Virus record (IMG/VR): IMGVR_UViG_3300031949_000004
Location: 94,224 to 158,223 of that record
Direction: 5' to 3' (one strand)
DNA: 64,000 nucleotides
DNA from: a virus
Shown here: piece after piece, positions 32,647 to 64,000 of the stretch
Numbering within the stretch: position 1 is the stretch's first letter
How the letters are laid out: the number at the start of each line of letters is the position of its first letter
The notes under the pieces: model-generated
The model's input: only the letters and a program-made list of their open reading frames with translations
Database searches by the model: none
Told to the model about the DNA's origin: nothing
Translations under genes and position numbers: made by a program

Positions 32647-32859
32647 ATGCCCACCAAAGTTTTCTACGCCTTCTTCGTACGGGATGTGGGAGGATCTTGG
32701 ACACTCAAAGGAATCGACGAAAACAAGGAAGTGGTGATCTGCATGTTGGAAAAGTGGAAACGCGCCCAGGGTTGTGAGCACATCGAAGTGCTGGAGCTAC
32801 CCGGCGGCCGAATGGTCTACGAATGGACGGCCGAGGCGCCGCAAAGGAGCGAACCATGA
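32647..32859 (+). CDS. hypothetical protein
   Basis: 70-aa ORF. Confidence 0.35.
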   Translation: MPTKVFYAFFVRDVGGSWTLKGIDENKEVVICMLEKWKRAQGCEHIEVLELPGGRMVYEWTAEAPQRSEP

Positions 32860-34823: not shown

Positions 34824-34832
34824 GGTAATCAC

Positions 34833-35897: not shown

Positions 35898-35959
35898 CAA
35901 CTCACATACTTGCTTAGCTTGGAAACTGCATTTACCACCCCCAGCCAAGGACAGCGAAA

Positions 35960-36478
35960 ATGATCAAGTGTACCTATCATGATCTCGCAGGGCTCCGTGA
36001 CCAGACCGTCAACCAAGGTTCTACCCAGATCACCAAGCCCGGTCCCCTGACCAAGCTTGCCCAGGCCGATGAAACCCGCATCCCGCTGCTCATGGATCGC
36101 ATTCGCATCGGTCGCTTCGTCGGCAAGATCGTCGCCGAGATCAAGGAGATGGAAGCCGACGCCATGAAACTGCTGAGCAAGTATGGCAAACAAGAGGAAA
36201 AAAACCCCGCCATATTCAACATTCCGCCCATAAACCGCGAGCTGTTCAACGAGGAGAACAACAAGCTCAATGACACCGAATGTGAGATCACGCTCCTGCC
36301 CTTGCCCGAATCGGTTTACGGCCGCCTACCACTCACGGCCGGTGACCTGATGGCTCTGGAGAAGTTCATCGTCTTGTCACCCGAAATGCAAAAGCTGCTC
36401 GCCGAGATGGAAGACGAGGACGAAGACGAGAACGAAGAAGATGAAGCGGACGTTGGCCAATCCGTCGCAACAGCCTAG
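35960..36478 (+). CDS. hypothetical protein with acidic C-terminal tail (possible fibre chaperone)
   Basis: EDEDEDENEEDE tail. Terminator hairpin follows. Confidence 0.45.
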   Translation: MIKCTYHDLAGLRDQTVNQGSTQITKPGPLTKLAQADETRIPLLMDRIRIGRFVGKIVAEIKEMEADAMKLLSKYGKQEEKNPAIFNIPPINRELFNEENNKLNDTECEITLLPLPESVYGRLPLTAGDLMALEKFIVLSPEMQKLLAEMEDEDEDENEEDEADVGQSVATA

Positions 36479-36489
36479 CAACATCGTTC

Positions 36490-36507
36490 AACCGGAAGCC
36501 CGGTTTT
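36490..36507 (+). terminator. hairpin AACCGG-aagc-CCGGTT followed by TT
   Basis: Read directly from the sequence. Confidence 0.4.
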
Positions 36508-36566
36508 GACCAGCAAAAGCCGGGCTCCAAACACCGATAACTCAATACCGCGACAAGGAGCACACA

Positions 36567-38348
36567 ATGCCAGTACAAGGTGGAAAACGCAGGGAATATC
36601 GTCCGGTGTGGTATGGCGAGAATAACACTTCACCTGTCCAAAACTACTCGGTTGGCAACTGGCTCACGTTCGCTGGGGGACCAAACCCAAACCTCGCGGC
36701 TATCGCCATCGGCAACAACGTTCTTCTCAATAACAGCTTTGGAAACGTAGCACTTGGGCAGGATATTACCGTAACCGGTTTTTACAGCGCCATCTGCGTC
36801 GGGCAACAACTTTCGGTTGGTTGCGCTAGCGGAACCTGCATAGGCCACAGCAGCACGATAGGTTCGGGGGGTGGCAATATAATAACCCTGGGTGACAGTC
36901 TCACTGTCCAGAATGGTGGTGGCGACATCACCTGTATTGGTTCCTTCTCGGAAATACAAACCCCCGGCAGCGGCCACATCTCCATAGGCCCTGACAATCG
37001 AATACTTGCAAATAGCGATGGCAACGTTTGTGTTGGTAGCAATCTCACCACCGGAGCTTTCGGTGACAACATTGTGCTTGTCGGCTACTCATTGTCAACC
37101 CAGGGCCAAGGCGGCAATCTCGTACTCATCGGTGCCCTCTCACGCACGTACACCAACTGCTCGGAAAGTGTATGTCTGGGAAACAACATGAATATCTTCA
37201 ACAACACAAACCGGTCGGTCTGTGTTGGCTACCAGTCAACCCTTGCACCAGAGACTGGCGACTGCGTCGTCGTTGGATCTGGCTCCATCATCTACAACAC
37301 CTCCATCCGTTCCACGGCCATCGGTTACGATGTCACCATCGGCGCGGCCACCAATGCCACGTTCTTCATGATCGTTCCCGACCTGGCAGATCTTGCCAAC
37401 AACGACTGGGTCTCGCTTCCGGATGGTCGTGGTGGCACCATCGAAGTCGAGTTCCAGGTCGACGGCAGCTTTGTTCCCTTCGGCCCGCCCCGGCTCGTGG
37501 CCGACGTACAATTCGCCGCCAATTCCACCGACGTTGGTTACATTCTCGTGGACACCTGGAACAGTGTCTACGGACTGCCCTACACATTCCCCATCCAAAG
37601 CGAAAGCGTCGGGGGCGACGGTCGCTGGACCGGAAACTTCATCTACCCGTCGCCCGGAGTCGCTGGCAACGGCTGGTCGGTCGTGCCCACCGTGGCTTCG
37701 GGCCTCTTCACGGGTTCGACATCCTTGGACGGCACCCAGACAGCTTCTCCCAACTGCGTATGCATCGGTTCGCTCAGTACGATCAACGGCAACTGTGCTG
37801 ACAGCGTCCTCATTGGTCACAACAGCACACTTACGGGACTCAACGGAGTGGCCATCGGAGCCGACGTGGTGTTGACAGGAAACGGCTGTGTCGCCATCGG
37901 TACGGGAGCCAGCACGAATGAGGTGGGCGGCATCGCCATCGGTTCAGGAACCATTTGCCACGATGGCGGCGGTCTGGCCATCTGTATAGGCGCGGAAGCT
38001 ACCGGAAACAACTGCATGGCCATCGGTCCTACCGCTCAAGCCACGGGAATCGCCGGTATCGCGCTCGGAGATCGCGCTGTCGCGAGTAGCTACGAATTCG
38101 TCGTCGGCGACTCAGAGAATATCTCCCCTATCAAGCCCTTCATTCACCACTTCGTGGTACGAGGTTTCGATCTCGTGGCAGTCACCCCCATCGACACCTT
38201 GTCCGTCATCGACAATCCATCTGTCGCCGGGGAAACCGGTCTCACCTTGACCTACTACAATGGCGTAACCGTCTCGAACAAAACCTTGAAAGCCAGCACC
38301 CTGGGCACCCTGCCCGCTGGCTCACTCGTCATCTACGTGGATCCATAG
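36567..38348 (+). CDS. tail-fibre-like protein with degenerate (V/I)xIGxxxxxxG repeats
   Basis: 593 aa. N-terminus GGKRREYRPVWYG and C-terminus SLVIYVDP are shared with the next gene. Confidence 0.6.
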   Translation: MPVQGGKRREYRPVWYGENNTSPVQNYSVGNWLTFAGGPNPNLAAIAIGNNVLLNNSFGNVALGQDITVTGFYSAICVGQQLSVGCASGTCIGHSSTIGSGGGNIITLGDSLTVQNGGGDITCIGSFSEIQTPGSGHISIGPDNRILANSDGNVCVGSNLTTGAFGDNIVLVGYSLSTQGQGGNLVLIGALSRTYTNCSESVCLGNNMNIFNNTNRSVCVGYQSTLAPETGDCVVVGSGSIIYNTSIRSTAIGYDVTIGAATNATFFMIVPDLADLANNDWVSLPDGRGGTIEVEFQVDGSFVPFGPPRLVADVQFAANSTDVGYILVDTWNSVYGLPYTFPIQSESVGGDGRWTGNFIYPSPGVAGNGWSVVPTVASGLFTGSTSLDGTQTASPNCVCIGSLSTINGNCADSVLIGHNSTLTGLNGVAIGADVVLTGNGCVAIGTGASTNEVGGIAIGSGTICHDGGGLAICIGAEATGNNCMAIGPTAQATGIAGIALGDRAVASSYEFVVGDSENISPIKPFIHHFVVRGFDLVAVTPIDTLSVIDNPSVAGETGLTLTYYNGVTVSNKTLKASTLGTLPAGSLVIYVDP

Positions 38349-42355: not shown

Positions 42356-43000
42356 TCAGGCAACGGCCGAGACATTGGCAACGAAAGTTGAGAATCCTGC
42401 CCGCAGCTTCTTGGCTTCATGGGCATTATGCGAGCACAGATCCAGGAAGACCGTGCTCTTTGCAATCTGTCCCAGGAGCACGATCAAGTCATCGCGCAGA
42501 TAGGGAGCAACCAACCTCATCCTGGTCTTCCTGCCAAGCAACAAACCCAGCTTCGCCACGTCCCGGCGATCTTTTTCACCTTTGCTTGAATGTCCCCGGC
42601 TCTGGAATGCCTCCAGCTTGAGCACGAGCAAGTGCTCCAGGCATGCCACCTTGACCTCGCCGTTCCCATAGGCAATTGCAGCCGCGTGCGCGAAGACCTC
42701 GTCATAGGGCACGACGAGCTGGTTCAACCGCTCGACATACACGTCGAACTCGACGCCATCGACGATCATCTGGTGCTTGGCAAGGCGAGGAGAAGGCACG
42801 ATTTCCTCCATATCCTTCAGGGTGCCGTAATCAGGGAAGGAGATCATAAAGTCGGCATCATGGCTCGTCTCCAGGGATATCATCCTGGATGCCCGGCGCA
42901 TCGCATGAAGGTACACGGCGACCCCACCGATGAAAACCACGCCCGGCAAGTTGTTGCCGATACCCTGGCAGAGATCCAAGATCTTGGCAAACGTGCTCAT
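42356..43000 (-). CDS. nucleotidyltransferase (AbiEii/DUF6036-like Pol-beta fold)
   Basis: VFIGGVAVYLH...SHDADFMI matches the GG.A...DxDF motif. Confidence 0.5.
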   Translation of the reverse strand: MSTFAKILDLCQGIGNNLPGVVFIGGVAVYLHAMRRASRMISLETSHDADFMISFPDYGTLKDMEEIVPSPRLAKHQMIVDGVEFDVYVERLNQLVVPYDEVFAHAAAIAYGNGEVKVACLEHLLVLKLEAFQSRGHSSKGEKDRRDVAKLGLLLGRKTRMRLVAPYLRDDLIVLLGQIAKSTVFLDLCSHNAHEAKKLRAGFSTFVANVSAVA

Positions 43001-43502: not shown

Positions 43503-44216
43503 ATGGATCACACCACTGTCACCACGCCTGCCGGATTCATGCGCGCCGTCGATCAGGCAAGAATGGCACGCAACCTCTCCAAAGCGGAAGTATCCAGAAG
43601 GTGCCACATGCGCCCGGAAGCGGTCCGGCGGCTCCTGTCCGGAAGTGCTCCCAACCCCACATTATCGAACGTGCTCAGCCTCCTTGGATCCCTCGACCTC
43701 GGCCTCCAGCTCAGGCCCTTGGCGACAAACAACGAAAATGCAAAACACGTCCTCATGGGCTGGCTAGCGCATTACGGGGCACCCCTTTATGGACCGCAAA
43801 ATCCCGGCAATCCCCCACCACCCGAAGTCGTGCTGGCAGACGCCCTCGTCCTAGCGCGCGGAAGCGGCTCGGTCGCCCGTGCTCTGCCGATGGCCTTCCT
43901 TGGCGCCCGCAAGAAGCTCGATTTCGATCGACTTGCCAAGGAAGCTGAAAGCCGGGGACAAGTCCGCACGCTCGGCTTCTTCCTTGATCTGTCAGCCGAG
44001 CTTTCCGGCCACCAAACCTTTGCAACGGCTGCCAGCAAGCTCCACGTCCATCCCGCCGCCACCATGACACGCCCTATACAGTTCTTTAAGCCAACCACGG
44101 CCCTGGAGCGGAAGCTGGCCGAAGGCCGCACGCCCAAAGTCGCCCGGAAGTGGGGTTTCCGCATGAACATGGACATGGACAGCTTCACGAGCATGTTCAG
44201 GAAAGTCGCTACATGA
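43503..44216 (+). CDS. XRE-type HTH protein with C-terminal domain (AbiEi-like antitoxin candidate)
   Basis: HTH ARNLSKAEVSRRCHMRPEAVRRLLSG. C-terminus ...ERKLAEGRTPKVARKWG. Lies directly upstream of an NTase gene. Confidence 0.5.
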   Translation: MDHTTVTTPAGFMRAVDQARMARNLSKAEVSRRCHMRPEAVRRLLSGSAPNPTLSNVLSLLGSLDLGLQLRPLATNNENAKHVLMGWLAHYGAPLYGPQNPGNPPPPEVVLADALVLARGSGSVARALPMAFLGARKKLDFDRLAKEAESRGQVRTLGFFLDLSAELSGHQTFATAASKLHVHPAATMTRPIQFFKPTTALERKLAEGRTPKVARKWGFRMNMDMDSFTSMFRKVAT

Positions 44217-44262: not shown

Positions 44263-44802
44263 ATGAAGACCTACGGCCGCGACGCGCTGCTGGGATTCCT
44301 TACTGAGATCGACAGGTTGCTGGAAAAGCCCGCCGACATGGAGATCATCGGCGGTGCCGCCGCTCTCCTGGTCTACGGTGCCACGAGCCCGACCAAGGAC
44401 ATCGACAGCTTCCTGCCCATCCCTGATGAGATCCTGCGCGCTGCCGCCGAAGTCAGGCGACGCATTCCTCTCGATCGCGCCACGGTGGCCGATCCTCCGT
44501 GGAACTACGAAGATCGCAGGCTACTGGTGGATCTGCCCTTCCACAGCCTGTCCATATGGGTGCCCGAGCGCCACGATCTCTTACTCATGAAGTCCATCAG
44601 ATCATCCCGGCACGACGACGAGGTCATCCAGGAGATGCACCAAGTCCAGCCGTTCGATCTGGAAACGATCGTGCATCGCTGGAACGAGGAGATAAGCCAA
44701 GCGATCGGCGACCACAGGATCCTGGATCAGAAGATCCAACTCATCATCGGGAAGCTGTTCGGCGATCCCGCCATGTCCCGCATCAAGCTCAAGCAGAAGT
44801 GA
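44263..44802 (+). CDS. nucleotidyltransferase (AbiEii/DUF6036-like)
   Basis: MEIIGGAAALLVYGATSPTKDIDSF. Confidence 0.5.
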   Translation: MKTYGRDALLGFLTEIDRLLEKPADMEIIGGAAALLVYGATSPTKDIDSFLPIPDEILRAAAEVRRRIPLDRATVADPPWNYEDRRLLVDLPFHSLSIWVPERHDLLLMKSIRSSRHDDEVIQEMHQVQPFDLETIVHRWNEEISQAIGDHRILDQKIQLIIGKLFGDPAMSRIKLKQK

Positions 44803-46916: not shown

Positions 46917-47147
46917 TCACTTCTCGTCTTGGTGAAACTTCCCCTCGGCCGCGCGCTTTGACTTGACAACCATGTCATCGAGCACCCGATCGACAACCGT
47001 CATCCCGGCCACCACGGGCTCCACGCCCTCGTAGCCGACGATCTTCACGTCGATATCGTCATCCTCGCCGCGCCCCATAGATCGCAGCACATACGACGGG
47101 ATAATGACCCCGAGACTGTTCCCCACGGCGCGCAACTTCAAGATCAT
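46917..47147 (-). CDS. AbrB/MazE (SpoVT-AbrB) fold small protein
   Basis: MILKLRAVGNSLGVIIPSYVLRSMG...DIDVKIV matches the looped-hinge-helix consensus. Confidence 0.5.
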   Translation of the reverse strand: MILKLRAVGNSLGVIIPSYVLRSMGRGEDDDIDVKIVGYEGVEPVVAGMTVVDRVLDDMVVKSKRAAEGKFHQDEK

Positions 47148-47370
47148 GCCCACATGGTACCACGTGGGAACATGAGTTACAACGTCGGTCCGTCGGCACT
47201 TGAACCCGAAAACCCTTGATCTGGGAGCCGGTAGCGATAGCATGGAGAGAACGAAGCCTCGGTCCCCTTGATCTGTCCGTGCGGCACATTAAGCGGATTA
47301 CCACGATGGCGAAGTCAGCTCGGATCCCGGCGACTTCAAAGATACCCTCCTCGTCCTTCCGTGAGGTGTC

Positions 47371-49065: not shown

Positions 49066-49677
49066 ATGGCCGACAAGACCTACGGCGCGAAGTACGATCG
49101 GAAGCTCTCCGTCAAGGAGATCGCCGTGCGGATCCGCGCCGACATCAAGGACGCCATCACACGTGGTGAGATCCCCGCTGTCAAGATATCCGTGCGCAGC
49201 GATCGAAACTCCATCGACGTGACCATCATGTCCTGGCCGAAGGGCTTCCAAATCTTGAACCCCGAACGAGTGATCTACGACCACTTGCACCCGAATCAAT
49301 TCGTTGACGAACGCATCCTTCCCTTGCACACCGAAGAAGCTTCCGCCCTGCACAAGCACATCGAAAAGCTGCGCAACGCCTACAACTACGACGACTCGGA
49401 TCCGATGACCGACCACTTCGATGTCAACTACTACGGCAGTACCCAGTGGAACTGGGAAGCCGAACGCAACGCGCGCCAGGAACTTCTGCGCAGCTTGCCG
49501 AAGTACGTGCCTGGTCAAGACGCCAAGATCACCTCGGGGCCTTTCGCCGGCTGGTACAAGATTGTCGATGTCTACGAAAACGAAGACGGACTCAACGTCG
49601 AGCTGGCACGCAAAGGCATAGATCCCCATGTCGTCGTTAACGGTCCCGATCTCGCCCTCCTCAGTCTCATGGAGTAA
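49066..49677 (+). CDS. hypothetical protein
   Basis: 203-aa ORF. Confidence 0.45.
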   Translation: MADKTYGAKYDRKLSVKEIAVRIRADIKDAITRGEIPAVKISVRSDRNSIDVTIMSWPKGFQILNPERVIYDHLHPNQFVDERILPLHTEEASALHKHIEKLRNAYNYDDSDPMTDHFDVNYYGSTQWNWEAERNARQELLRSLPKYVPGQDAKITSGPFAGWYKIVDVYENEDGLNVELARKGIDPHVVVNGPDLALLSLME

Positions 49678-49681
49678 CAAC

Positions 49682-51490
49682 ATGTCGAAGAATCTCGCCA
49701 ACGATCTCATGATCACCACTTCCTACGACGATCCAGATCCAGACGGAACGGATGTCGACGGCATTCTTCCTTTGCTCACACCCTACTCCGAGGAAGACGA
49801 AAACGACGAAGCCGCCGAGGACAACGAGGAAAACGTCGCCATCGACACCGCCGGGGGCACCGAAATCATGGGCGCCTCCAAGAACAGGGCCGAAGAAGAA
49901 GAGCTGGAGGCCGAGATCGAACCGGGCTTCCGCGACATCGACTTGCCCAAAAACGAGAGAATGCCCGACGAAGATCCGGAAGGCTTTGCCGCCCTCCAAG
50001 AAGATCTCGAACCCGGCGAGGCTGAAGGCTACCTCGAATACATGCGCCCCCTCACGGCCGAAGAAGCCGAGCTGGTAGATGACCCGATGTTCAAAGATCT
50101 ACGCTGGGTCGACGACCCCGCGCACGTCCAGGACATCCTTCGCACCGGCAAAAACGAGCGAGGCATCGACAACCGCCTGAAGGACACAATCTACGGAGAC
50201 ATGCTCATGAAGAACGAAGAAGAACTCGCAGACATCCTCGACTCCGATAAGCTTGCAAGTTGGGGCGACAACTTCACACCCCTGCCCAAGACCTACGTTC
50301 CCACCCGTGATGCCAAGAAACTTGCGCTGGTGCGCGGACTCTCGCAAACGCTTCAGTGCGGTCATGCACGCTACCTCCGGGCGGCAGATCACACTGCCGG
50401 CGTGGCGATACGTCCGGGCTCGTACTACATGAACGTCGCCGGTCTGTGGACCCAAAACAAGCTTCGCCGGAACAACGTGCCGATGTCCCCCCGCTCGAAC
50501 TGGGCGCGTGTGTCCATGCCCGTCCTGCTCGGCGCCGCGCAAACCCTTCTCGACGAAACGAGTGGCACGCGACTCTTCGATGCCCAAGGCCACGCCGACA
50601 TGATGGGCTGGGGACTTTCGTCCCTGAATCCAATCAAGGCCGTCAAGAGCGTCGCGAAGCGCGCCAAAGGCGCGGCTTCATCGATCCACAAATACACAGT
50701 CAAGATGCCCGCCAAGTACGCCTACAAGTACACGGTCAAGATGCCCGCCAAGTACGCCTACAAATACGGCGTCAAGATGCCTGCCAAGTACGCCTACAAG
50801 GGCGCCAAGGTCGTGGGCAAGGTCGCACAAAGTCTCGCTCTGCGTCCCATCAAGGCCATCATCCGCAAGTTCACCAACACAGCGGTGAATCGTCGCGCGG
50901 CAGCCATCGCCAAACAACGCGGTCTCCCCAAGCCCGGTCCTGCCGAACGCACCGCCGCGCTTACCTGGGCCAAGAATCTCGTGCGCAAGACGAACAGGCT
51001 ATACGGCTCAGCCATCGCCTCGCTCATGGGCGCGGAACACGGCGTCCAAGCAGCGGACATCTCTTTGGGTAATGCCGATAACGCCACCATCGGAAACGAC
51101 GTGATGGGGACAGCCGGACTCATCATGCTCGGACCCATCGCGCTCATCAGCCTGCTCACGAAGCTCTTCAAGACCAAGTCAGCACAGCAAGCTGCCCCAC
51201 CCTTGCCAGGCGAAGATCCGAATGCCGAAGATCTGGGCACGCCCGACGAAGGTTACGAAGAAGATGCTTCCGAAGAAAGCTACGCCGAAGAAAGCTATCC
51301 CGAAGAAAGCTATCCCGAAGATTCAGCCGGGGGACCAAGCAGGGGTGGTATTGGGAAACGTGTTGCCGCCACGTTGCTCAGAAATTTTCCAAACGGCATT
51401 CCCCGCGCAAGGCTCGCCCAGCTTCGCCTGATCTCGGCAGCCGTCGCCAAGGCACTGATCCAAGCAGGCAAGCTCAAGGTCATCGGATGA
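49682..51490 (+). CDS. large acidic/repeat protein (putative internal virion/ejection protein)
   Basis: 602 aa. The N-terminus is acidic. It has 3 copies of KYTVKMPAKYAY and EESY repeats. Its C-terminal tail is shared with 51782-52129. Confidence 0.5.
   Translation: MSKNLANDLMITTSYDDPDPDGTDVDGILPLLTPYSEEDENDEAAEDNEENVAIDTAGGTEIMGASKNRAEEEELEAEIEPGFRDIDLPKNERMPDEDPEGFAALQEDLEPGEAEGYLEYMRPLTAEEAELVDDPMFKDLRWVDDPAHVQDILRTGKNERGIDNRLKDTIYGDMLMKNEEELADILDSDKLASWGDNFTPLPKTYVPTRDAKKLALVRGLSQTLQCGHARYLRAADHTAGVAIRPGSYYMNVAGLWTQNKLRRNNVPMSPRSNWARVSMPVLLGAAQTLLDETSGTRLFDAQGHADMMGWGLSSLNPIKAVKSVAKRAKGAASSIHKYTVKMPAKYAYKYTVKMPAKYAYKYGVKMPAKYAYKGAKVVGKVAQSLALRPIKAIIRKFTNTAVNRRAAAIAKQRGLPKPGPAERTAALTWAKNLVRKTNRLYGSAIASLMGAEHGVQAADISLGNADNATIGNDVMGTAGLIMLGPIALISLLTKLFKTKSAQQAAPPLPGEDPNAEDLGTPDEGYEEDASEESYAEESYPEESYPEDSAGGPSRGGIGKRVAATLLRNFPNGIPRARLAQLRLISAAVAKALIQAGKLKVIG
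50690..50797. repeat. 36-nt tandem repeat, three copies, in-frame (KYTVKMPAKYAY)
   Basis: aaatacacagtcaagatgcccgccaagtacgcctac occurs three times with few substitutions. Confidence 0.8.
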
Positions 51491-51765
51491 ACCGAGACGA
51501 AAAAGAAGCACTCCGCGAAAACTCGCTCGATGGCGTCGACGAGTTCGCCCGCGATGTTACGGGTTTCCCGGCCTTCCTTTCGACCCTCGCAATCGATCAG
51601 CTCATCAAGCCCACCATCTCCGAAGTCGTCAGTCCATGGCGCAAAAAAGCCGTTCACGGCGCCAAGAGCAGCACTGCCAAAGCCGTCCGCAAAACCGTGT
51701 CCAAGTCGCCGAACGAACAAAGCTCCCAAGCAGATCACAACGAAGATTCCGACGAAAAGTCGTAG
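51487..51765 (+). CDS. MNRDE-family small protein 1
   Basis: ATGA overlap. The N-terminus MNRDEKEALRENS..DEFARDV is shared with the next two genes. Confidence 0.45.
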   Translation: MNRDEKEALRENSLDGVDEFARDVTGFPAFLSTLAIDQLIKPTISEVVSPWRKKAVHGAKSSTAKAVRKTVSKSPNEQSSQADHNEDSDEKS

Positions 51766-51781
51766 TCACCAAAGGAACATC

Positions 51782-52129
51782 ATGAACCGCGAAGAAAAAG
51801 AAATTTTGGCCGAAAGCCGCAGCCGCAGTGGCGCCGAGCTAGCCCGTGAAGTTGCCGGAGGTCTCGATGACCAAGGCTGGGGTTGGGGCTCGATCAAACG
51901 TGGTCTCCGGTCATCGGTCACTGCGCCTTTGAAGGCTGCAAAATACTCGCTCACGATCCCCTACAGGGGAGCCAAAGCCTACCTCACCAACAAGCCCGGC
52001 AATCTCGCCACCAAGTTGCTCTCGACATTCCGCCAGGGCATCACGCTCGAACAACTCACTCGCATGTCCCCCGCTCTCAGGAAACAGGTCCAGAAACTCA
52101 TCGCCGCCGGTAAGATCCGTCTCGCATGA
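51782..52129 (+). CDS. MNRDE-family small protein 2
   Basis: MNREEKEILAESRSRSGAELAREVAGG. The C-terminus LIAAGKIRLA resembles the C-terminus of 49682-51490. Confidence 0.45.
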   Translation: MNREEKEILAESRSRSGAELAREVAGGLDDQGWGWGSIKRGLRSSVTAPLKAAKYSLTIPYRGAKAYLTNKPGNLATKLLSTFRQGITLEQLTRMSPALRKQVQKLIAAGKIRLA

Positions 52130-52178
52130 TCGGGCGGCCAACCCCTTCGACGAACAACCTCGAAACAAGGATCCCATC

Positions 52179-55100
52179 ATGAACCGTGACGAACAAGAAG
52201 CCAACACCCAGAACCAGAGCCGCAGCGGCGTCGAGCTGGCCCGCGAGGTTGCACTCGGTGCCCTGCCCGCAGAGATCTTGTCGGCCGGCGATGCTCCCGC
52301 TTCCCCGGTCTACGTCTTCGACGTGCAGGCGGCCGTGAACAAGGCAGTGAGCAAAGCCACGGCAAGCAAGCGCATCTGGGATCGCAAGATCCTCGGCATC
52401 GCCTGCCAGGCCGCCCAACCAGCCGTCGAACAGGGCTTGCGCCAAGCCGGCAAGGCATTCACGCGCGACGAGCTGCGCGCGGCAATCCGCTTGCACGTGA
52501 AAGCCTACGTGGATCAGTTCGCCGTGACCTTGCCCCGCGACGTGATCTTGGGCAACACGCAGCTCGAAGCCGTGGCCGCCGACATCTGCGGTGGGCTCAA
52601 CATGCCCTGGCAGGCGTTCCTACCGCCTCAAGTCCAGTTCGCCCTGGCAGCGAGCAAGGCCGGCAAACCCCAGGCAACCTCATGGCTCAAGAAGCTCTTC
52701 AGTCGCGGCAAGAAAGCCTCCCCGGCTCCCGCTGCACCGGTTGCCGCAAGCGACAAGACGGCTCCTGCATCACCTGCACCTACGCCGGCAGCCACGGAAG
52801 CTGCCCCCGCAAGCCCACCCCCGGCAACGGCCGGCTCGTCCGATTCACTCGGTGACAGTGAACTCGGAGCCTGGTTGCACAAGCTCAATCCTGCCTATTG
52901 GATCAAGAGCAGCCAGGAGAAGAAGTTCATCGACGCCGAAAAACAGGCTTGGATCGACAACGCCTACAACCTCAAACAACAAAAGAAGAAGGAAGCGGTG
53001 ATGTCCCAGGCTGAAAAGGCGCTCGCCGCCAAGCAGGCCTCGGCCCTCGCCTACCAGCGTACATCCGAGCTGGAAGCCCAGCTCAAGTCCATCGAATCCC
53101 AGGTCGCTGGTGCCGTTGGTCCTGCTGAAATCATGGGCTCCATCGGTCCCGCTGAGATTATGGGCAAAGCGGAAATCGTCGGAACAAAGCTCGACGATCC
53201 GTTCGACAGCAAGATCCCCGAGGAAGCCGCCGCACCCGTGCTCAAGAAGGTTGCGAAGGCTCGCCAGCTCAACGAAGCCAATCGACAAGATCTCGAAACC
53301 ATCTCGACCAAGCTCAGAAGCGGTGAAGGCTTGATGCCGGACGAATCCGCCAAACTGCTCATCTTGCTCGCGCGCAACGAACAACTCCACGAATTCCGCA
53401 AGAGCCTCGTCTCGGGCAAGCTGTACGCCACGTCCCCCGCGCGGGCACAGATCCAGCGCCAGGTCGTACTCGGTGCCGTCAAGGCCCTCACGCCCACCGA
53501 ACAACAACAACTGGCCTACATGATGAAGCTTGCCAAGCAAGGCAATCCTGCCGCCATCAAAGCAATCGAACAGCTACGCCAGCAAGGCTACTCGGTCATG
53601 GGCTGGGGGATCAGCGACGCATTCAAAGCCGTCACTTCACCCATCTGGAAGCCAGCCAAATACTTGGGCAAAGGTCTCAAATGGACGGGCAAGAAGCTCG
53701 GCATCATCAAGGGCAAGGCCAGCCCCGAGCAGGTGCGCATGGCCAGGCTCAAGTCCGCACAGAAACGCGCGCAGGCTGCCCAAGCCCGCGCTCGTGCTGC
53801 CGATGCCCAGTCCGAGGCTGAATACCGTGTCCAGCAACAGCTCGCCTCCGCCGCCGATGCGGAAGCTGATGCCGCCGATGCGGAAGCCACGGCCAAGGAA
53901 GCCCAGATGCAGACCGCCGAAGCCGAGTACATTCCCGGCCAAACGGCTGAAACCGACGAATCCGGTTTGCCTCCGGCCCCGCCACCGCCCGCATCGGTCA
54001 TCAACGCACCCTATGCGTTCCGTGGCGTCAAGCCCATCATAACCCCGCTTGCTGCAACCCCGTCGCCCGAGGCAGCAAAGATCAAGGCCGTCAAAAAAGC
54101 AATCTTGAACAAAAAGCACCCCAAGGCCGCCAAAATCTTGTCCAAGGCCGAAGAAGACTCCCCCGGCGGCATGAAGCTGCGCGCTTCGATGAAGCTCTAC
54201 GCTGGCGCCAAGCTCAATCCCAAGGGGCCAGAGGCGCAAGCCATCCGAGTCATGGCCGCCAGGGCAAGGAAGGGCGACAAGCAAGCCCTCGCCGACATCC
54301 ACGCGGTCAAGCTGGCTCAGATCGCCGTCAAGGCCGACCAGAAAGCCGGACGCCAGACAGCGGCGCTCTACGCGGCACGAGCACGCAAGAAGAAGGTGGC
54401 AGCCGTGCAGAAAAAGATGGAAATAGCGACCTCGAACGTCCTCATCCGGCGCTCGCGCACGCACCAGCTCGCCAAGCTCGCCAAGGTCGAACGCAAGGCT
54501 GCTGCCGGCGACAAGAAGTGCCAAACCTTCATCAAGCAAGTCGCGACCAAGGCCAAGGCTGGGGATCCGAAAGCCAAGAAAGTGGCCGCCGGCCTCGTCC
54601 TCGCCAAGCACGTTCGCACCTCGGCGCCTACACGCCGCGAGCGCAAGAACCTCCGCGACGCGCACAAGCTCGTGGCCAAAGTCGCCAAAGGCAATCGCAA
54701 AGCCACAGCCCAGGCTCGCGTGATCGTCGCCGCCGCCAAGGCCGGCAACCCGAACGCACAACGGGCGCGCAGGCGCATGCAGACGGCTGCGGCCGTCCAT
54801 CAGACCATCGCCACGGGCACCATCGTCCTGCCCGCCGTGATCGCGACTGCCGAGCGCCAGGGCAAGAAACACAAGCAGAACCAGCAGAAGGTGGCAGTGG
54901 CCGAAACCAAGCTCGCCCGAGGCACCGCCTCACGTGAAGAATTGCAAGCTGGCGCCAAGGCCGCCGCCGACAACGGCGACAAGACCAAGGCCGGCGAGCT
55001 GCTCGCCGCTTCCGCTGCTGCGCCTTCCAAAGCCGAATCGCTCAAGAAGACGGGCGCTGTGCTCGCGGCTGCCGCCAACGACAACCCCAAAGCTCAAGCT

Positions 55101-56393
55101 TCGATGGAGAAAGCCCAAACCCTGGCCGCGCAAGGAGATCCATTGGGCATGGAAGCCATGGGCAACGTCGTGGCCGTGAAGAACCTCGATCAGATCTCCA
55201 AGGGCAAACCCATGGACAAGGAAATGGCCGAGGCCGTGCAGCTTACGCAGGCGGCTGCCCAGGGCGACGAGGTCGCCGCCGCCAAGCTCAAGAGCAATCT
55301 CGAAGCGGCTAAGACCGGTAACGGCGTTGCCGTCAAGGCCACCGTGGTCGCGGCTGGCGCAATCGCGGTCGCCAAATCCCTGGCCAACAACCCGGTGGCA
55401 CGCGACGAATGGCTCGCCAAGGCAGGGGTCAAACCCGACGAGGCATCCGAGCTGCAAAACACCGATCTATCCTCCCGACCGTCGGGACCGCACCCATTCT
55501 CGTCGCTCGGCCGCGATGAGCTGGCCCCCATCACAGGCCTGTGGTCGCTGGTCGTCGAGTCGTTGCGAGCCCTCACGCTCGCGACCCCCGACCCCGTGGC
55601 CAACTACCGGCAGGGTGTCGCCGCTCGCGCGGCGAGCCGCCGCTTGCTCACTGCTTCCTCGACTACGGGCGATGAACCAGGCAAGCGTCGCCTGTTCCGC
55701 GATCTGGACGACAACGAACCTACGCCACCCAAACCCGAGCCTCCGAAGCCAGGTAAAACCGGCAAGCCAACCAAGAAGAAAGATCCGGAAGCCCCGGCTC
55801 GCGTCAAGTTGGATCCGGAAGAGCAATGGCGCGTTCACGGCAGCAGTTCCGGCAAAGCCGAACGCCCGGTGGTGAACGACAGCGATCAGGCCATCGAGGC
55901 TCTGGCCAAGCAGACCAAGAAACCCGAGATGCAAAAATACATTCTCGGAATCAAGAAGTACGGTCCGCAAGATCCAGAACGCCAGGGCCGCATGCTCTAC
56001 GCCCTTGAAGTCGTACAAATGGAGAAGGTCGCGGGCATGGGCAACGACGATCGCCAAACCAAGCTCCGCGAAAAGATCGCCCAGCTTCGTAAGAAGTCGC
56101 CCCAGACAGACGCCGACAGGCGCGAGCTGGAGCAGGCAACCGAACAGCTCGAACGCGCCGAAGCCATGAGCGGCGAAAGCCTGCCCGACATCGCACGCAA
56201 GAAGCTGGCTGACACGACGGCAGAACGCCTAGCCAAGATCAAGCATGCCGCCGGCAAGGGCGACAAGAACGCCGCCGCGAAGTGGGAGATCGTCAAGAAA
56301 AACCACGCCAGTGCCAAGGCCAAGGCCGCCAAGGGCGACGCCAAGGCCAAAGACTTGCTCGCGGTCCTCGAAGCCACCAAGCTGTTCTCGTGA
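52179..56393 (+). CDS. giant Ala/Lys-rich repeat protein with MNRDE-type N-terminus (tape-measure or internal virion protein candidate)
   Basis: 1404 aa. MNRDEQEANTQNQSRSGVELAREVALG. It has >15 degenerate ~20-aa repeats of the form A[KA]xGDxKA......V..A. It sits directly upstream of a membrane protein and an SLT. Confidence 0.6.
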   Translation: MNRDEQEANTQNQSRSGVELAREVALGALPAEILSAGDAPASPVYVFDVQAAVNKAVSKATASKRIWDRKILGIACQAAQPAVEQGLRQAGKAFTRDELRAAIRLHVKAYVDQFAVTLPRDVILGNTQLEAVAADICGGLNMPWQAFLPPQVQFALAASKAGKPQATSWLKKLFSRGKKASPAPAAPVAASDKTAPASPAPTPAATEAAPASPPPATAGSSDSLGDSELGAWLHKLNPAYWIKSSQEKKFIDAEKQAWIDNAYNLKQQKKKEAVMSQAEKALAAKQASALAYQRTSELEAQLKSIESQVAGAVGPAEIMGSIGPAEIMGKAEIVGTKLDDPFDSKIPEEAAAPVLKKVAKARQLNEANRQDLETISTKLRSGEGLMPDESAKLLILLARNEQLHEFRKSLVSGKLYATSPARAQIQRQVVLGAVKALTPTEQQQLAYMMKLAKQGNPAAIKAIEQLRQQGYSVMGWGISDAFKAVTSPIWKPAKYLGKGLKWTGKKLGIIKGKASPEQVRMARLKSAQKRAQAAQARARAADAQSEAEYRVQQQLASAADAEADAADAEATAKEAQMQTAEAEYIPGQTAETDESGLPPAPPPPASVINAPYAFRGVKPIITPLAATPSPEAAKIKAVKKAILNKKHPKAAKILSKAEEDSPGGMKLRASMKLYAGAKLNPKGPEAQAIRVMAARARKGDKQALADIHAVKLAQIAVKADQKAGRQTAALYAARARKKKVAAVQKKMEIATSNVLIRRSRTHQLAKLAKVERKAAAGDKKCQTFIKQVATKAKAGDPKAKKVAAGLVLAKHVRTSAPTRRERKNLRDAHKLVAKVAKGNRKATAQARVIVAAAKAGNPNAQRARRRMQTAAAVHQTIATGTIVLPAVIATAERQGKKHKQNQQKVAVAETKLARGTASREELQAGAKAAADNGDKTKAGELLAASAAAPSKAESLKKTGAVLAAAANDNPKAQASMEKAQTLAAQGDPLGMEAMGNVVAVKNLDQISKGKPMDKEMAEAVQLTQAAAQGDEVAAAKLKSNLEAAKTGNGVAVKATVVAAGAIAVAKSLANNPVARDEWLAKAGVKPDEASELQNTDLSSRPSGPHPFSSLGRDELAPITGLWSLVVESLRALTLATPDPVANYRQGVAARAASRRLLTASSTTGDEPGKRRLFRDLDDNEPTPPKPEPPKPGKTGKPTKKKDPEAPARVKLDPEEQWRVHGSSSGKAERPVVNDSDQAIEALAKQTKKPEMQKYILGIKKYGPQDPERQGRMLYALEVVQMEKVAGMGNDDRQTKLREKIAQLRKKSPQTDADRRELEQATEQLERAEAMSGESLPDIARKKLADTTAERLAKIKHAAGKGDKNAAAKWEIVKKNHASAKAKAAKGDAKAKDLLAVLEATKLFS

Positions 56394-60255: not shown

Positions 60256-60396
60256 TCACACTAGATGAACGTTCAAGAGAAATATCACGGCGAAAAGAGA
60301 CTTGAGAATCAGGGGAAGGTATCGCATGGCCGAGAACAACACGAAAAACAAGAACACCGCCCCGAGGGTCAGAGCCGAGTTCTTCATCCAAGCCAT
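60256..60396 (-). CDS. small hydrophobic protein (46 aa), speculative
   Basis: MAWMKNSALTLGAVFLFFVLFSAMRYLP. AT-richer region. GAGAAGAGAAGTCA direct repeats upstream. Confidence 0.2.
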   Translation of the reverse strand: MAWMKNSALTLGAVFLFFVLFSAMRYLPLILKSLFAVIFLLNVHLV

Positions 60397-60536
60397 CGAA
60401 TGACTTCTCTTCTCTTCCGTGACTTCTCTTCTCTCCACACCAATAAAGTACCACATCTTTCCAGGGAAATCAACAAAGAGGTGACAAGCCGCGTCTAATA
60501 CTACTCCGGTAAGTCATTTCCCCGAGGACAAAGCAA

Positions 60537-60791
60537 ATGGCACAGGACATCATTTTCGGTCGAACCAGAGCGAACTGGAGCCGCTCGTCGAGCCTCTCGG
60601 GCATGGGCTCGGTGATCCTTTCGACCAAGGAGCAGGCCCGCATGCTCGACAAGGTAGACGACGTTCGCTACGACGTACGCAAAGCCAGCGGCAGGGTAGC
60701 CATCGCGCTCGGGTGTCTGGCGGCCTCCGTCGGCATGTTCTCCGTCGCGAGCATCTTTCGCACCTCGCGTCTCCCTCCCCGCTCACCATGA
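60537..60791 (+). CDS. hypothetical protein with C-terminal TM
   Basis: 84-aa ORF. Confidence 0.3.
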   Translation: MAQDIIFGRTRANWSRSSSLSGMGSVILSTKEQARMLDKVDDVRYDVRKASGRVAIALGCLAASVGMFSVASIFRTSRLPPRSP

Positions 60792-60814: not shown

Positions 60815-61297
60815 TCACCTGCCGGAATCATAACGACGATTGGCGGCTAACGTGGCTTTCAAAGTGGGAAGATGCGCGCGATCTTTGGCACGATTGGCTG
60901 CTCGCTTGCTGGCGATAACCCTGTCAAGAGGCAAGACCTTGAGAAGCAAACCTTCCACATCCATCTCAACGGCGTCCTCGTATTCTCGTGCAAAAGACTT
61001 CAAGCCGCTGCACGATCTGACAATATCGATCCTTTCCAGCTTTTCCCCTGTCAGCACCGGAGAATCCGCGCGCCACGCAAACATGCTACCCACAGCACGT
61101 GCCGCCTGGTCCAATACCCCATCAGAAGTTGATTCAAACCAGAGATCGATGTCCTGGGTGCCGATATTGGCACCCTGCAAATCGGCCGCCGACATGCCCA
61201 CAACCATGAACCGGGAGCCATTCTCGATCAAAATGCGCAGGAAATCGTGCTCTTCATCCGTGAGCGGCGTGTCCTTTATGAGTGGCGAGCGAGACAT
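60815..61297 (-). CDS. nucleotidyltransferase (DUF6036/AbiEii-like core)
   Basis: FMVVGMSAADLQGANIGTQDIDLWF. Overlaps the upstream partner gene by 22 nt. Confidence 0.5.
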   Translation of the reverse strand: MSRSPLIKDTPLTDEEHDFLRILIENGSRFMVVGMSAADLQGANIGTQDIDLWFESTSDGVLDQAARAVGSMFAWRADSPVLTGEKLERIDIVRSCSGLKSFAREYEDAVEMDVEGLLLKVLPLDRVIASKRAANRAKDRAHLPTLKATLAANRRYDSGR

Positions 61298-61572
61298 CTC
61301 GACAACCTTTCTGCTGGCGTCAACGTCAAACTGTAAAGCGAGTGCTCGACATCGCCAGCATCCACCCGGAAACGCGCTGCCACTTCTCCGGCAACCTTAC
61401 AACGATATACACGATCAGCACGCAACCGTCGCCTTGAATCCCATCGCGCAGCAATGGCCTTACGCGCAATCTCCCTGCGCCGCTCGCTGGAAAGCAAAGC
61501 AGCCCTTGCCGGTCCTCCCCGGAGTCCTCCCAAGCGGCCCAAAGCCACGGCATTGGCATTCTTCATGCCCAC
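61276..61572 (-). CDS. small basic partner protein of the NTase (antitoxin-like)
   Basis: GRLGGLRGGPARAALLSSERRREIARKAIAARW. Forms an operon with 60815-61297. Confidence 0.45.
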   Translation of the reverse strand: MGMKNANAVALGRLGGLRGGPARAALLSSERRREIARKAIAARWDSRRRLRADRVYRCKVAGEVAARFRVDAGDVEHSLYSLTLTPAERLSRCLARHS

Positions 61573-61664
61573 AAACTACCTCATCCATCTTGAGCGGTCA
61601 AGTATCTTGCACACCCAACAAACAACGACCCAACCGACCGAACTATATAAAATCACAAGACAAT

Positions 61665-62171
61665 ATGGTGTACGTTCAAAGATTGACGATCACATCAAAA
61701 CAGCGTACATTCAAGACCATGCAAACTATGTGCGCCACCCACCTCCGAAAGAAACTCTTCGACACGCTCGCTCGGATTGCGGAAAACCGCGAGCCCGTGG
61801 AAATCACCATCGACAATCGCTCCATCGCCGCCCTCGTCCCTTCCACGGGACTTCCCCCAACCAGACGCAAGCCACTCCTCGATCTCGACGCCATCTCGGC
61901 ATTCTGCCGCAAGCATCAAGTAAAGAGCTTCGCCCTCTTCGGATCCATCCTGCGCGACGACTTCAACGAAGAGAGCGATGTGGATGTGCTCCTCGATGTC
62001 GATGGCCGGAGTCTCGAATTCCACGAATCGTGCTCCATGATCGACGAATTGGAGACCATGTTCGGTCGCAAAGTCGACATGGCCACGGATTCCGATCTCA
62101 AACGCGCCAATCGTTACCGCCGGGAATCCATCCAATCCGCCAGCCAGGAGATTTATCGTGTCACCGCGTGA
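61665..62171 (+). CDS. minimal nucleotidyltransferase (MNT) with Phd/YefM-like N-terminal extension
   Basis: LFGSILRDDFNEESDVDVLLD is a GS...DxD motif. The N-terminus RKKLFDTLARIAENREPVEITIDNRSIAALVP is Phd-like. An alternative start lies at 61719. Confidence 0.6.
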   Translation: MVYVQRLTITSKQRTFKTMQTMCATHLRKKLFDTLARIAENREPVEITIDNRSIAALVPSTGLPPTRRKPLLDLDAISAFCRKHQVKSFALFGSILRDDFNEESDVDVLLDVDGRSLEFHESCSMIDELETMFGRKVDMATDSDLKRANRYRRESIQSASQEIYRVTA

Positions 62172-62502
62172 AGGAGGAGATCTCGCGTGGATCTCCGACA
62201 TCCTGGAAGCAGCAGCCGCCATCATCAACGGTACCAACGGTCTGCGGCTTACGGAGTTCATAGGCTTACCCCAACTCACATACGCCGGAATCCTCCTGAA
62301 GCTCCAGATCATCGGCGAAGCATCGAAGAACCTCACGGCCAAAACAAAGACCAAGTACCCAGATATCAAATGGTCAAACCTAGCAAAGCTGCGCGACTTC
62401 ATCGCCCATCATTACTGGCGAGCAGATCACGTGCTGATCTGGAACCTCATCCAGAAAGAACTGCCGACCCTAATCGACAAATTGCAGATCCCCGACGAAT
62501 GA
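62158..62502 (+). CDS. HepT/DUF86 HEPN-domain toxin
   Basis: LQIIGEASKNL...KWSNLAKLRDFIAHHYWRADHVLIW contains the R-x4-6-H HEPN motif. The GTG start overlaps the MNT stop by 14 nt, with AGGAG upstream. Confidence 0.7.
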   Translation: MSPREGGDLAWISDILEAAAAIINGTNGLRLTEFIGLPQLTYAGILLKLQIIGEASKNLTAKTKTKYPDIKWSNLAKLRDFIAHHYWRADHVLIWNLIQKELPTLIDKLQIPDE

Positions 62503-62515
62503 AACGGTGACCACC

Positions 62516-63079
62516 ATGGCATACGATCTCCTTTTTCGCCGCGAGACCGACTCGGACTACTCCATCCACCCCGAGGGCACCGAACCCACCACGCAACCTC
62601 TACCCATCGAATTCTCAGCCGTCGAGCGCAAGACCCTGGCACAGCTCGAACCCGCCACCCGCGTCTTCGCAATCAACGTGATCGGGTGGGCACGCAGCAA
62701 GGGCATCAAGGCTCGCCTCACTTCCACCGCCATCTACACCACTGAAGACGTCGCCAAACACCACAAGGAAGGTCGCAGCAGCATCGCGCCTGGCCGCTTA
62801 TCCTGGCACAGCGTCGGTCGCGCCTTCCACATCACCTTGCCCAAGCTGCCTCCCTACAACAAGATCGACGAGGAGTCGTACAAGCGCATCGGTGCCTATG
62901 CACGCAGCCAGGGCGGCGAATGGCTCGGCGACAAGCCCATCCGCACCACCAAAGGGATCGTCTACGACACCGCGCACTTCGAGTACCACCCAGGATTCGA
63001 CATCGCCACCTACCGCCAGTTGCCGCTCGCCGCCGCCGAGATGAAAGCTGCGCTACAGCGCCGCAAGCTCTACGGCTAG
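62516..63079 (+). CDS. MAYDLL-family protein with LAS/M15-like peptidase motifs (endolysin or virion peptidase candidate)
   Basis: SWHSVGRAFHI parallels SxHxxGxAxD, and DTAHFEYH parallels DxxH. The MAYDLLFRR N-terminus is shared with four other proteins. Confidence 0.4.
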   Translation: MAYDLLFRRETDSDYSIHPEGTEPTTQPLPIEFSAVERKTLAQLEPATRVFAINVIGWARSKGIKARLTSTAIYTTEDVAKHHKEGRSSIAPGRLSWHSVGRAFHITLPKLPPYNKIDEESYKRIGAYARSQGGEWLGDKPIRTTKGIVYDTAHFEYHPGFDIATYRQLPLAAAEMKAALQRRKLYG

Positions 63080-63092
63080 AAAGGATCCTCGC

Positions 63093-63563
63093 ATGGCCTA
63101 CGATCTCCTCTCCGGCAAGGTGACATCCGCCAACTTCGCCCTGTCCGGCATCGGCGACGACGATCCGCTCCTCTGGACCTCGGCTTCCGCCAAGGCCGAG
63201 TTTGCACGCATTCGCACCATGCTCGACACCGTCAACCTCGAAATGACCCAGGCCGTGAAAGATCAGAAGATCTCCAGCGACGAGTGGAAGCAATGGTTCT
63301 CGCTCTACAAGACCGGACACAAGCTCACCAGCCAATCGACCTGGTTCTCTGTCTCCAAAGGCGACATCATCGTGGCCCGCAAAATCGAACAGAACGCCAA
63401 AGGCTGGCATGATCTCGTGCAGTCCCGAGGTGGCAAGGGCATCGGCCCCAAGGGACAGTTCCGCAAGGACGAGCCAACCGGCGGCAGTTGGTTCTGGCCG
63501 ATCGTCGGTGGCACCCTGCTCGTCGGCGCGGGCCTCATGGTCACCAAGAAAGTCATCAAGTGA
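63093..63563 (+). CDS. MAYDLL-family protein with C-terminal TM (holin/spanin-like)
   Basis: MAYDLLSGKVTSANFA...SWFWPIVGGTLLVGAGLMVTKKVIK. Paralogue of 30070-30264. Confidence 0.45.
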   Translation: MAYDLLSGKVTSANFALSGIGDDDPLLWTSASAKAEFARIRTMLDTVNLEMTQAVKDQKISSDEWKQWFSLYKTGHKLTSQSTWFSVSKGDIIVARKIEQNAKGWHDLVQSRGGKGIGPKGQFRKDEPTGGSWFWPIVGGTLLVGAGLMVTKKVIK

Positions 63564-63589
63564 TCCACCAGATCCAAGGTCAACAAACC

Positions 63590-64000
63590 ATGGCTAATAA
63601 AAAAAGATTCCTGAATCCTCAAGACGTGGAAGACGCGATCGTCGAAGTTGCGCGAATTGCCCAAAAAGAAAACATCTCCGTTGCTCTCATCGGCGGCGTA
63701 GCCATGGAGATCTTCGGCTCCGATCGCATGACCAAAGATATCGACTTCGTTTGCTCGGCAATGCCATCTTCCGGAATCATTCCCAAACGCACCCTGTCCT
63801 TCGGAGGCATCTCAGGATCTACAAAACATGGACACCCCGTCGATCTGGTGGTCCGCAACGATGTCTACGAAGCACTGTATGACGAAGCCCTTGCCCAAGC
63901 CATCGAGCACGAAGATCTGCCAGTCAAGCTCGTGACACCCCCCTACCTCGCCGCCATGAAGATGGCCGCCGGACGCGACAAAGACGAAATGGATCTCAAG
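63590..64000 (+). CDS. nucleotidyltransferase (DUF6036/AbiEii-like core), 3' partial
   Basis: VALIGGVAMEIFGSDRMTKDIDFV. The frame is open to the window end. Confidence 0.45.
   Translation, partial: MANKKRFLNPQDVEDAIVEVARIAQKENISVALIGGVAMEIFGSDRMTKDIDFVCSAMPSSGIIPKRTLSFGGISGSTKHGHPVDLVVRNDVYEALYDEALAQAIEHEDLPVKLVTPPYLAAMKMAAGRDKDEMDLK

Follow-up and report, generated by a model that had tools for sequence, protein, structure and literature searches.

What might a virus gain from several small nucleotidyltransferases (NTases) encoded side by side at one locus? The question is raised by the right-hand end of a 64,000-nt stretch of viral DNA (IMG/VR record IMGVR_UViG_3300031949_000004), which corresponds to bases 46589-110588 of the 140,711-bp ENA metagenome contig ERZ27256953 k141_1554128; the whole stretch is called the window here, and coordinates without a prefix are window positions. 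An original prediction, made from the letters alone, had described positions 60815-64000 as a toxin-antitoxin (TA)-like island interleaved with lysis genes, and all the open reading frames (ORFs), overlaps and motifs that it listed are present where it had placed them. Here, we propose, with a probability of roughly 60%, that this is an accessory island in a late or tail-proximal position which holds three independently mobile NTase modules, namely the type VII TA pair mntA-hepT, a MenAT1-like pair of genes called B and A, and the orphan NTase gene G. The gene structures, the identities of domains and motifs, the conservation of the pairs and their variable placement among related phages can be read from the sequences; toxicity, substrates, DNA binding and biological role are inferred, and the modules would most likely serve the phage through abortive infection, exclusion or stabilisation. 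TA modules and accessory islands are familiar from other phages, and each part of the island is of a known kind; the B-A family is widespread and seems to be unstudied.

By its motifs and gene order, the plus-strand pair mntA-hepT is a class I type VII TA pair. The gene mntA (61719..62171) encodes 150 amino acids, which Pfam, PADLOC and homologs resolve into a Phd/YefM-like N-terminal domain (residues 1-42) and a minimal nucleotidyltransferase (MNT): the protein matches Pfam NTP_transf_2 (E 1.5e-11, 44.9 bits against a cut-off of 21) and Polbeta (1e-8), and it is assigned to the PADLOC candidate family PDC-S09 (3e-20). Its partner hepT (62158..62502) encodes a predicted HEPN RNase toxin of 114 amino acids that matches the Pfam HepT-like family (HepT/DUF86, PF01934; E 7.5e-17, 61.6 bits against a cut-off of 23.5), while a PDB sequence search with HepT returned no meaningful match. 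Class I systems are defined by GSX10DXD in the MNT protein and RX4HXY in HepT (Yao et al. 2020, PMC7641770). Both motifs, on which the earlier assignment to a canonical MNT/HepT pair had been staked, align exactly: MntA has G75-S76-ILRDDFNEES-D87-V-D89, together with D120, and the translation of hepT reads R79-DFIA-H84-H-Y86. The MNT gene stands upstream, and hepT starts with GTG, 7 nt after an AGGAG, in a 14-nt overlap with mntA. This overlap recurs in the homologous pairs at L133 and L134-L136 (L-numbers denote related or source loci), and Phd-MNT plus HepT with a 14-nt overlap is likewise carried by related phage-like contigs and by a 1.87-Mb bacterial contig, where the pair lies between housekeeping genes. 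The pair had first been placed at 61665-62502, and an ORF from 61665 to 62171 does exist, but mntA most likely starts at the ATG at 61719, since the public gene call, an identical 150-amino-acid record (P0121) and all 33 aligned homologs start there.

The closest characterised relative is HepT/MntA of Shewanella oneidensis (SO_3166/SO_3165; PMC7641770), which has in common with the phage pair PF01934 with RX4HXY, PF01909 with GSX10DXD, an MNT gene that comes first, overlapping genes and, by analogy, the expected oligo-AMPylation of the motif tyrosine. HepT would accordingly act as an RX4H RNase that MntA keeps inactive by oligo-AMPylating Y86 through its GSX10DXD site. The phage pair differs from the Shewanella system in its phage-like genome, in NCBIfam scores below the cut-off (see below) and in the additional domain of about 42 residues at the N-terminus of MntA. 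Several observations support a Phd/YefM-like nature of this extension. Its residues are well conserved in an alignment of 33 homologs, 31 of the 48 closest MntA homologs are annotated with PF02604 (PhdYeFM), and homologs of about 150 amino acids with PF02604 plus PF01909 occur. The profile of the MntA family finds at least nine Phd/YefM-type PDB chains, among them Phd, YefM, VapB46 and RelJ, always at positions 1-45 and each with a weak score (E 0.05-0.6); MntA alone matches PF02604 weakly as well (E 0.028 over profile positions 1-41, with 14.6 bits where the cut-off is 29.8). In comparison with the antitoxins that define this domain (P1 Phd, E. coli YefM), the beta-alpha-beta-beta element of MntA corresponds to positions 1-41 of PF02604; each score taken singly is weak, and MntA has the N-terminal part only, the toxin-binding C-terminal tail being replaced by the NTase domain. 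The extension had been called unusual, which it is not within its subfamily, where it recurs in phage-like contigs and on a bacterial chromosome. The Phd-like domain likely dimerises and would bind an operator in the 146-nt divergent region upstream, thereby autoregulating the operon, and the fusion suggests a route by which type VII systems may gain transcriptional autoregulation. Literature searches found no paper on a Phd-MNT fusion; mntA-hepT is a new member of a well-characterised family, within a Phd-fused subfamily for which no description was found in the literature.

On the minus strand, gene A (60815..61297) encodes a putative toxin of 160 amino acids, a minimal Pol-beta-type NTase that appears MenT1/AbiEii-like from Pfam, an AlphaFold2 (AF2) model, Foldseek and its conserved residues. 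It contains TQDIDLWF and belongs to a family of 781 related clusters, which by its sequences seems to border DUF2204, DUF6036 and AbiEii: among 41 members, Pfam matches went to DUF2204 in 17 (counted at E<0.01), to DUF6036 in seven, to AbiEii in one and, weakly, to Aminoglyc_resit in four. Literature searches found no paper on the function of DUF2204 or DUF6036. The nearly invariant residues of the family, G34, T47, D49, D51, D91, K131, R136, K138 and D139, are all present in A, whose T-x-D-x-D and K...R.KD motifs align with T39, D41, D43 and K137 of MenT1, the phospho-acceptor and catalytic residues of that toxin (PMC11375011). The best profile match of the A family in the PDB is TM1012, a putative NTase of Thermotoga (2ewr, 2fcl, 4hx0; E 3e-5), which is like A in size and fold class but aligns in sequence only over the N-terminal half (53 residues) and has no known function or partner.

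Gene B (61276..61572, minus strand) precedes A and overlaps it by 22 nt; its product of 98 amino acids contains GGPARAALLSSERRREIARKAIAARW and is a putative antitoxin by its homologs and its adjacency to A. B is absent from public gene calls. Nevertheless it is clearly a real gene as judged from its sequence, with full-length homologs at 50-82% identity. Four neighbourhoods that are unrelated to one another, those of the window, L002, L004 and L006, show the order B, then an A homolog of 153-164 amino acids, with overlaps of 4-22 nt. A metagenome search with a narrow alignment of the A family returned 439 relatives; 80 of their loci were fetched, 73 with enough upstream sequence, and in 61 of these 73 the NTase gene starts where a B-like ORF ends, with only the C-terminal half of B matching in about two-thirds of the 61. 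The same alignment found nothing in IMG/VR. B-A is a conserved two-gene module, and the proposal that the minus-strand pair is a translationally coupled unit is borne out by both the four neighbourhoods and the metagenome loci.

Within B, a basic motif (residues ~4-45) is followed by a C-terminal domain (residues ~54-97), and in the AF2 model residues 54-97 form three helices with a predicted local distance difference test (pLDDT) score above 93, the region of the N-terminal motif being disordered. The GG.ARA...ARW motif that had drawn attention to the protein is present as described, but the part specific to the NTase partner is the C-terminal domain, as the 61 of 73 loci indicate. As a marker of NTase partners the basic motif is ruled out: it is free-standing and occurs mostly at the C-terminus of unrelated proteins of about 80 amino acids that have no conserved neighbour (at least 148 bacterial and 30 viral loci; the idea was tested on 109 bacterial and viral loci), although a few longer proteins with the motif at their N-terminus precede AbiEii-like NTases (L026, L053, L090). 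The family of ~80 amino acids is itself very widespread (bacterial MAG and IMG/VR loci L016-L124), with the consensus MPKRSxKxRDxNQLAxxIV...GKNPxAVALGRLGGxKGGKARAxKLSxxxRxEIAKKAAxARW and hosts among Acidobacteriota, Planctomycetota, Chloroflexota and Proteobacteria as well as viral contigs; it has no Pfam match and no conserved gene neighbour.

What, then, would such a pair do? The AF2 model of A (pLDDT 93.6) has ANT(2'')-Ia, TM1012, MenT1/MenAT1 and LnuA among its top Foldseek matches (E 7e-5 to 9e-4, TM-score 0.55-0.63). With ANT(2'')-Ia and TM1012, whose function is not known, among the best matches and LnuA in the top ten, B-A might be a two-subunit enzyme or a regulated small-molecule NTase of an aminoglycoside- or lincosamide-like kind, with B as the subunit that sets specificity or regulates. 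Substrate binding by minimal NTases often depends on a helical partner domain (the KNTase/HEPN relation), and the four weak Aminoglyc_resit matches in the A family point in the same direction. This explanation seems improbable, as the TM-scores are just 0.55-0.6 at 14-17% identity, the conserved residues follow the T-x-D-x-D and K...R.KD pattern of MenT/AbiEii, and the A family is related to the family of gene G (hhalign probability 97.8%), which itself matches MenT1 at 7.5e-9; a small, upstream, overlapping partner and mobility of the module are moreover typical of TA systems.

The B-A pair looks more like a MenAT1-like TA pair, with a partner of no described family and an NTase outside Pfam AbiEii. 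MenAT1 (Rv0078B/Rv0078A) and the AbiE/MenAT systems are TA systems with a DUF1814 NTase (PMC10435456, PMC11375011). As in these, the gene of a small partner stands directly before that of a small NTase, and both A and G have motif III (K...R..D) and a motif I whose phospho-acceptor threonine lies two residues ahead of DxD; the predicted fold of A also matches MenT1 and the MenAT1 complex. The differences are that A is nearer to DUF2204/DUF6036 than to Pfam AbiEii, that B is unrelated to MenA1, to AbiEi/COG5340 or to any Pfam family, and that G has no partner. By analogy, A would be a MenT1-like NTase that blocks translation by adding nucleotides to the 3' ends of tRNAs. B, translated first and coupled to A via the 22-nt overlap, would neutralise A by binding through its C-terminal three-helix domain and might also trigger auto-phosphorylation of A at T47, and the basic N-terminal arm of B might be an optional nucleic-acid-binding add-on. 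For this pair, we infer toxicity, the tRNA target and both the mode and the direction of neutralisation from the MenAT1 parallel.

The third module is gene G (63590..64000, plus strand), of which the first 137 of 181 codons lie within the window; the complete gene is found at 11433-11978 of L001, the source-contig locus that extends beyond the window end. G appears to be an orphan MenT1/AbiEii-like NTase. Homologs were found on phage-like contigs (37) and in IMG/VR (eight), the family profile matches MenT1 (8an4) with E 7.5e-9, and T48, D50, D52, K124, R129 and D132 are invariant or nearly so in the family and aligned with MenT1. The part of G inside the window matches Pfam AbiEii over residues 27-58 only (26.7 bits against 22.5). 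G had been counted as the start of a third TA-like module with a partner beyond the window. The extended contig does not bear this out: neither an upstream nor a downstream neighbour is conserved in 12 loci, and the gene of 128 amino acids that follows G has no homolog beside other G genes and no Pfam match. Because of the lack of a conserved neighbour in these 12 loci, we regard G as an orphan NTase and not as the start of a TA operon; it would be a MenT1-like NTase that travels alone, without a cognate antitoxin.

G is not the last small NTase of this genome. Gene H, with 193 amino acids at L001 15049-15630, about 3.2 kb past the window end, contains GGIAVAAHGYRRDTADVDAF and KFLAGREDPKDALD; its identity with A and G is 25-28%, its sole Pfam match is a weak one to DUF2204, and its upstream neighbour is kept in L012, where it does not stand beside an NTase. 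An earlier island of similar content within the window includes an NTase-like gene of 214 amino acids at 42356-43000 (minus strand, no Pfam match), and there a XRE-type helix-turn-helix (HTH) protein at 43503-44216 is followed by a DUF6036 NTase at 44263-44802 (E 1e-14); an ORF of 108 amino acids that resembles SpoVT/AbrB (MazE-like) lies at 46917-47243, with PcfJ-like and HNH genes nearby. The genome thus encodes at least six small NTases (those at 42356-43000 and 44263-44802, A, MntA, G and H), and their density in one phage genome is the most unusual aspect of the locus. L012, a 290-kb contig of a distant relative, has a solitary MNT-domain gene of 217 amino acids that is 57% identical to the NTase part of MntA and is not followed by HepT, and a G homolog and a class II MNT plus HEPN (PF05168) pair are also present, all within 16 kb (features at 1634-2287 and 9958-10756).

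This gene content could also speak for counter-defence or host take-over, in which MntA-type enzymes would silence HepT-like RNases of the host by AMPylation, and the MenT1-like enzymes (G, H, possibly A) would act on tRNAs or other RNAs of the host, either to stop translation or to blunt tRNA-targeting defences. The number of small NTases, the always solitary G-family genes on phage-like and IMG/VR contigs and the NTase set of L012, where an MNT-domain gene stands without HepT, are all in line with it, and the retention of the mntA-hepT pair in a related phage at only about 55% identity suggests that it has long been useful to the phage. We nevertheless consider it unlikely. The partner of MntA is an intact HepT with its full motif, in the canonical overlapping arrangement, which requires no target in the host, and A has a tightly linked partner, as toxins do; literature searches found no experimental or literature precedent, and the argument is drawn from gene content throughout. 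Whichever way they act, recurrent orphan MenT1-like genes on phage genomes raise the question of an offensive use of "toxins" by phages.

The placement of the modules among related genomes fits a variable accessory island of independently mobile modules and agrees with the earlier description of the region as hotspot-like. In the related phages L002 and L006, B-A stands beside genes that are in common with window positions 26-28 kb and 31.6 kb, and not near the peptidase gene of the island. In L004 the pair adjoins a homolog of the window's HTH plus DUF6036 pair (43.5-44.8 kb), which in the window is 17 kb away from B-A, and L134 shares a 338-amino-acid gene, an 84-amino-acid transmembrane protein (described below) and mntA-hepT with the window and is without B-A. 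The conservation in L134 shows that mntA-hepT has been kept in this phage lineage over considerable divergence. The GC content of the island (0.56-0.58) is like that of the remainder of the window, and no repeat of relevance to the island emerged from the repeat searches.

Selfish spread is known for TA modules, and the occurrence of each module in unrelated neighbourhoods across genomes would suit selfish addiction cassettes or decaying passengers that benefit only their own persistence. Such an explanation has little probability in our view: the catalytic motifs are all intact and the residues that are nearly invariant across each family are kept, a diverged relative has kept mntA-hepT in the same neighbourhood, and addiction presupposes a replicon at risk of loss, for example a plasmid-prophage, for which nothing seen here gives an indication. 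The preferred reading, an accessory island whose modules benefit the phage, would place the control of both B-A and mntA-hepT in the 146 nt that separate the divergent genes B and mntA (61573..61718), an intergenic region which from its position is the probable promoter/operator of both modules. One sigma-70-like match lies within it, at 61683-61711 on the plus strand, but such matches are no more numerous there than chance would give.

Several features point to a large, very divergent uncultivated phage as the source of the window. It encodes a Dda-like helicase, its genes form long co-directional arrays, IMG/VR contigs hold relatives of the island genes, and a putative tail-length protein of 1404 amino acids is followed by an SLT-domain protein just upstream of the island. 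Proteins identical to MntA and to G are also recorded on a 194-kb contig. ORFs of 666, 354, 593, 620 and 1404 amino acids at 32823-38348 and 49628-56393 lie in the expected structural region. Among these large ORFs no terminase, portal, capsid or tape-measure protein was matched in Pfam or PHROGs, and the sole match is a YadA-head repeat in the 593-amino-acid protein; from its sequence, the virion module is very divergent.

A number of results count against the reading proposed here. The phage identity rests on context and IMG/VR relatives because the large, structural-looking ORFs of the window have almost no PHROGs or Pfam matches, and a DNA search found no match to the window among deposited phage genomes. 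No integrase was seen, so a defence role based on lysogeny is unsupported. Promoter and terminator scans of the region gave results at chance level, and co-transcription within the modules is therefore deduced from the overlaps only. With 34.3 bits for the NCBIfam equivalog MntA_antitoxin and 21.8 for HepT_toxin, both scores fall far short of the cut-off of 60, which makes mntA-hepT a divergent member outside these narrow equivalogs. For A, the match to DUF2204 (PF09970) is below the cut-off (18.4 bits against 20.3, E 0.0018) and there is no match to Pfam AbiEii (PF08843); since A itself stays below the DUF2204 cut-off, yet 17 of the 41 family members match, we place it in a neighbouring subfamily. 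The profile of the A family matches MenT1 weakly (E 0.1), and the model of A fits MenT1 (Foldseek E 5e-4, TM-score 0.57-0.63) no better than the small-molecule NTases ANT(2'')-Ia and LnuA. B, finally, has no match in Pfam, NCBIfam or PADLOC and its model no match in a fold search, and because it has neither a recognisable domain nor a fold match, its label as an antitoxin comes from position and co-occurrence only.

A bolder version of the proposal, which we hold to be rather doubtful, is that B-A founds a widespread and unstudied MenAT-like family, in which a three-helix domain of about 45 residues that Pfam does not contain would control a DUF2204-like tRNA NTase, perhaps via auto-phosphorylation of the conserved threonine, and that the phage lineage stockpiles six or more minimal NTases, some of them orphan MenT1-like "toxins" that lack an antitoxin, not as ordinary TA pairs but for attack on the translation or the RNA-based defences of the host. 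MenT/AbiEii-type NTases are among the most abundant families of toxins and anti-phage effectors, and their antitoxins are diverse. If small NTases of a sister group have yet another partner family, as the tight linkage in 61 of 73 loci suggests, this would broaden the picture of antitoxin diversity, and with 98 and 160 amino acids B-A is a compact pair for asking whether antitoxin-induced auto-phosphorylation is general. None of these findings is of a surprising kind.

Between and beside the NTase modules lie genes of another kind. Gene E (62516..63079, plus strand; 187 amino acids) encodes a probable LAS/M15-type cell-wall peptidase with an N-terminal MAYDLL tag, as judged from sub-threshold profile matches and Zn-ligand residues: its match to Peptidase_M15_4 is weak (16.6 bits against 25, E 0.012), a PHROG endolysin family is matched at 0.0035, and a PDB sequence search gave no meaningful match. 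The Zn ligands of such peptidases follow the pattern H-x6-D ... H. H98, D151 and H154 of E recur in a relative with the canonical HxxGxAxD motif, whereas E and its L012 homolog have histidine in place of the canonical aspartate. Gene F (63093..63563, plus strand; 156 amino acids) has by its sequence the same tag and one C-terminal transmembrane helix, and no match in Pfam, PHROG or PADLOC. On the left flank of the island, a plus-strand gene at 60537..60791 encodes a tagged protein of 84 amino acids (MAQDIIFGRTRANW) with a C-terminal transmembrane helix, likewise read from the sequence, and a homolog of it lies just downstream of hepT in L134 (E 1.3e-19). The earlier description of these genes as lysis genes is plausible but weak, the matches being sub-threshold and the tag being common to unrelated proteins. 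It is equally possible that E and F are virion-associated or otherwise targeted proteins.

The tag itself, of about 20 residues (MAYDLL..R.TRANW..S), begins E, F and at least five other proteins of the genome. Its consensus is M-A-Y-D-L-L-x-[GR]-[RK]-x-[TR]-x-[AS]-N-[WFY]-A/S, and it is found at window positions 29696, 30070, 30291, 60537, 62516 and 63093, at L001 13265, at L012 4157, 7190 and 8979, and at L134 3503. The tagged proteins include E and three with a single C-terminal transmembrane helix, and the L012 homolog of E is tagged as well. At the DNA level, the pattern ATGGCNTAYGAYCTNYT occurs five times in the window against 0.28 expected. The tag looks like a lineage-specific targeting or processing signal.

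Some further observations concern other parts of the window. To the left of the island, two exact copies of the 15-nt direct repeat TGACTTCTCTTCTCT lie 19 nt apart at 60401-60434, inside a small minus-strand ORF at 60256-60456. An inventory of Pfam matches, built on rough ORF calls and with matches not mapped to coordinates, contains single proteins that match Sigma70_r4 (6e-16) and RNA_pol_A_CTD (3e-14), and sulfotransferase, glycosyltransferase and methyltransferase family matches. An Rfam scan of the window gave no match at the gathering threshold, not even to a tRNA. At the opposite end from the island, an ortholog of Ro60/TROVE is encoded at 39-1316 (vWA_Ro60 3.5e-58; TROVE 7.6e-28), and ARAGORN places a 67-nt tRNA-Arg(CCG) at 1780-1846, 460 nt downstream of that gene and on the opposite strand.

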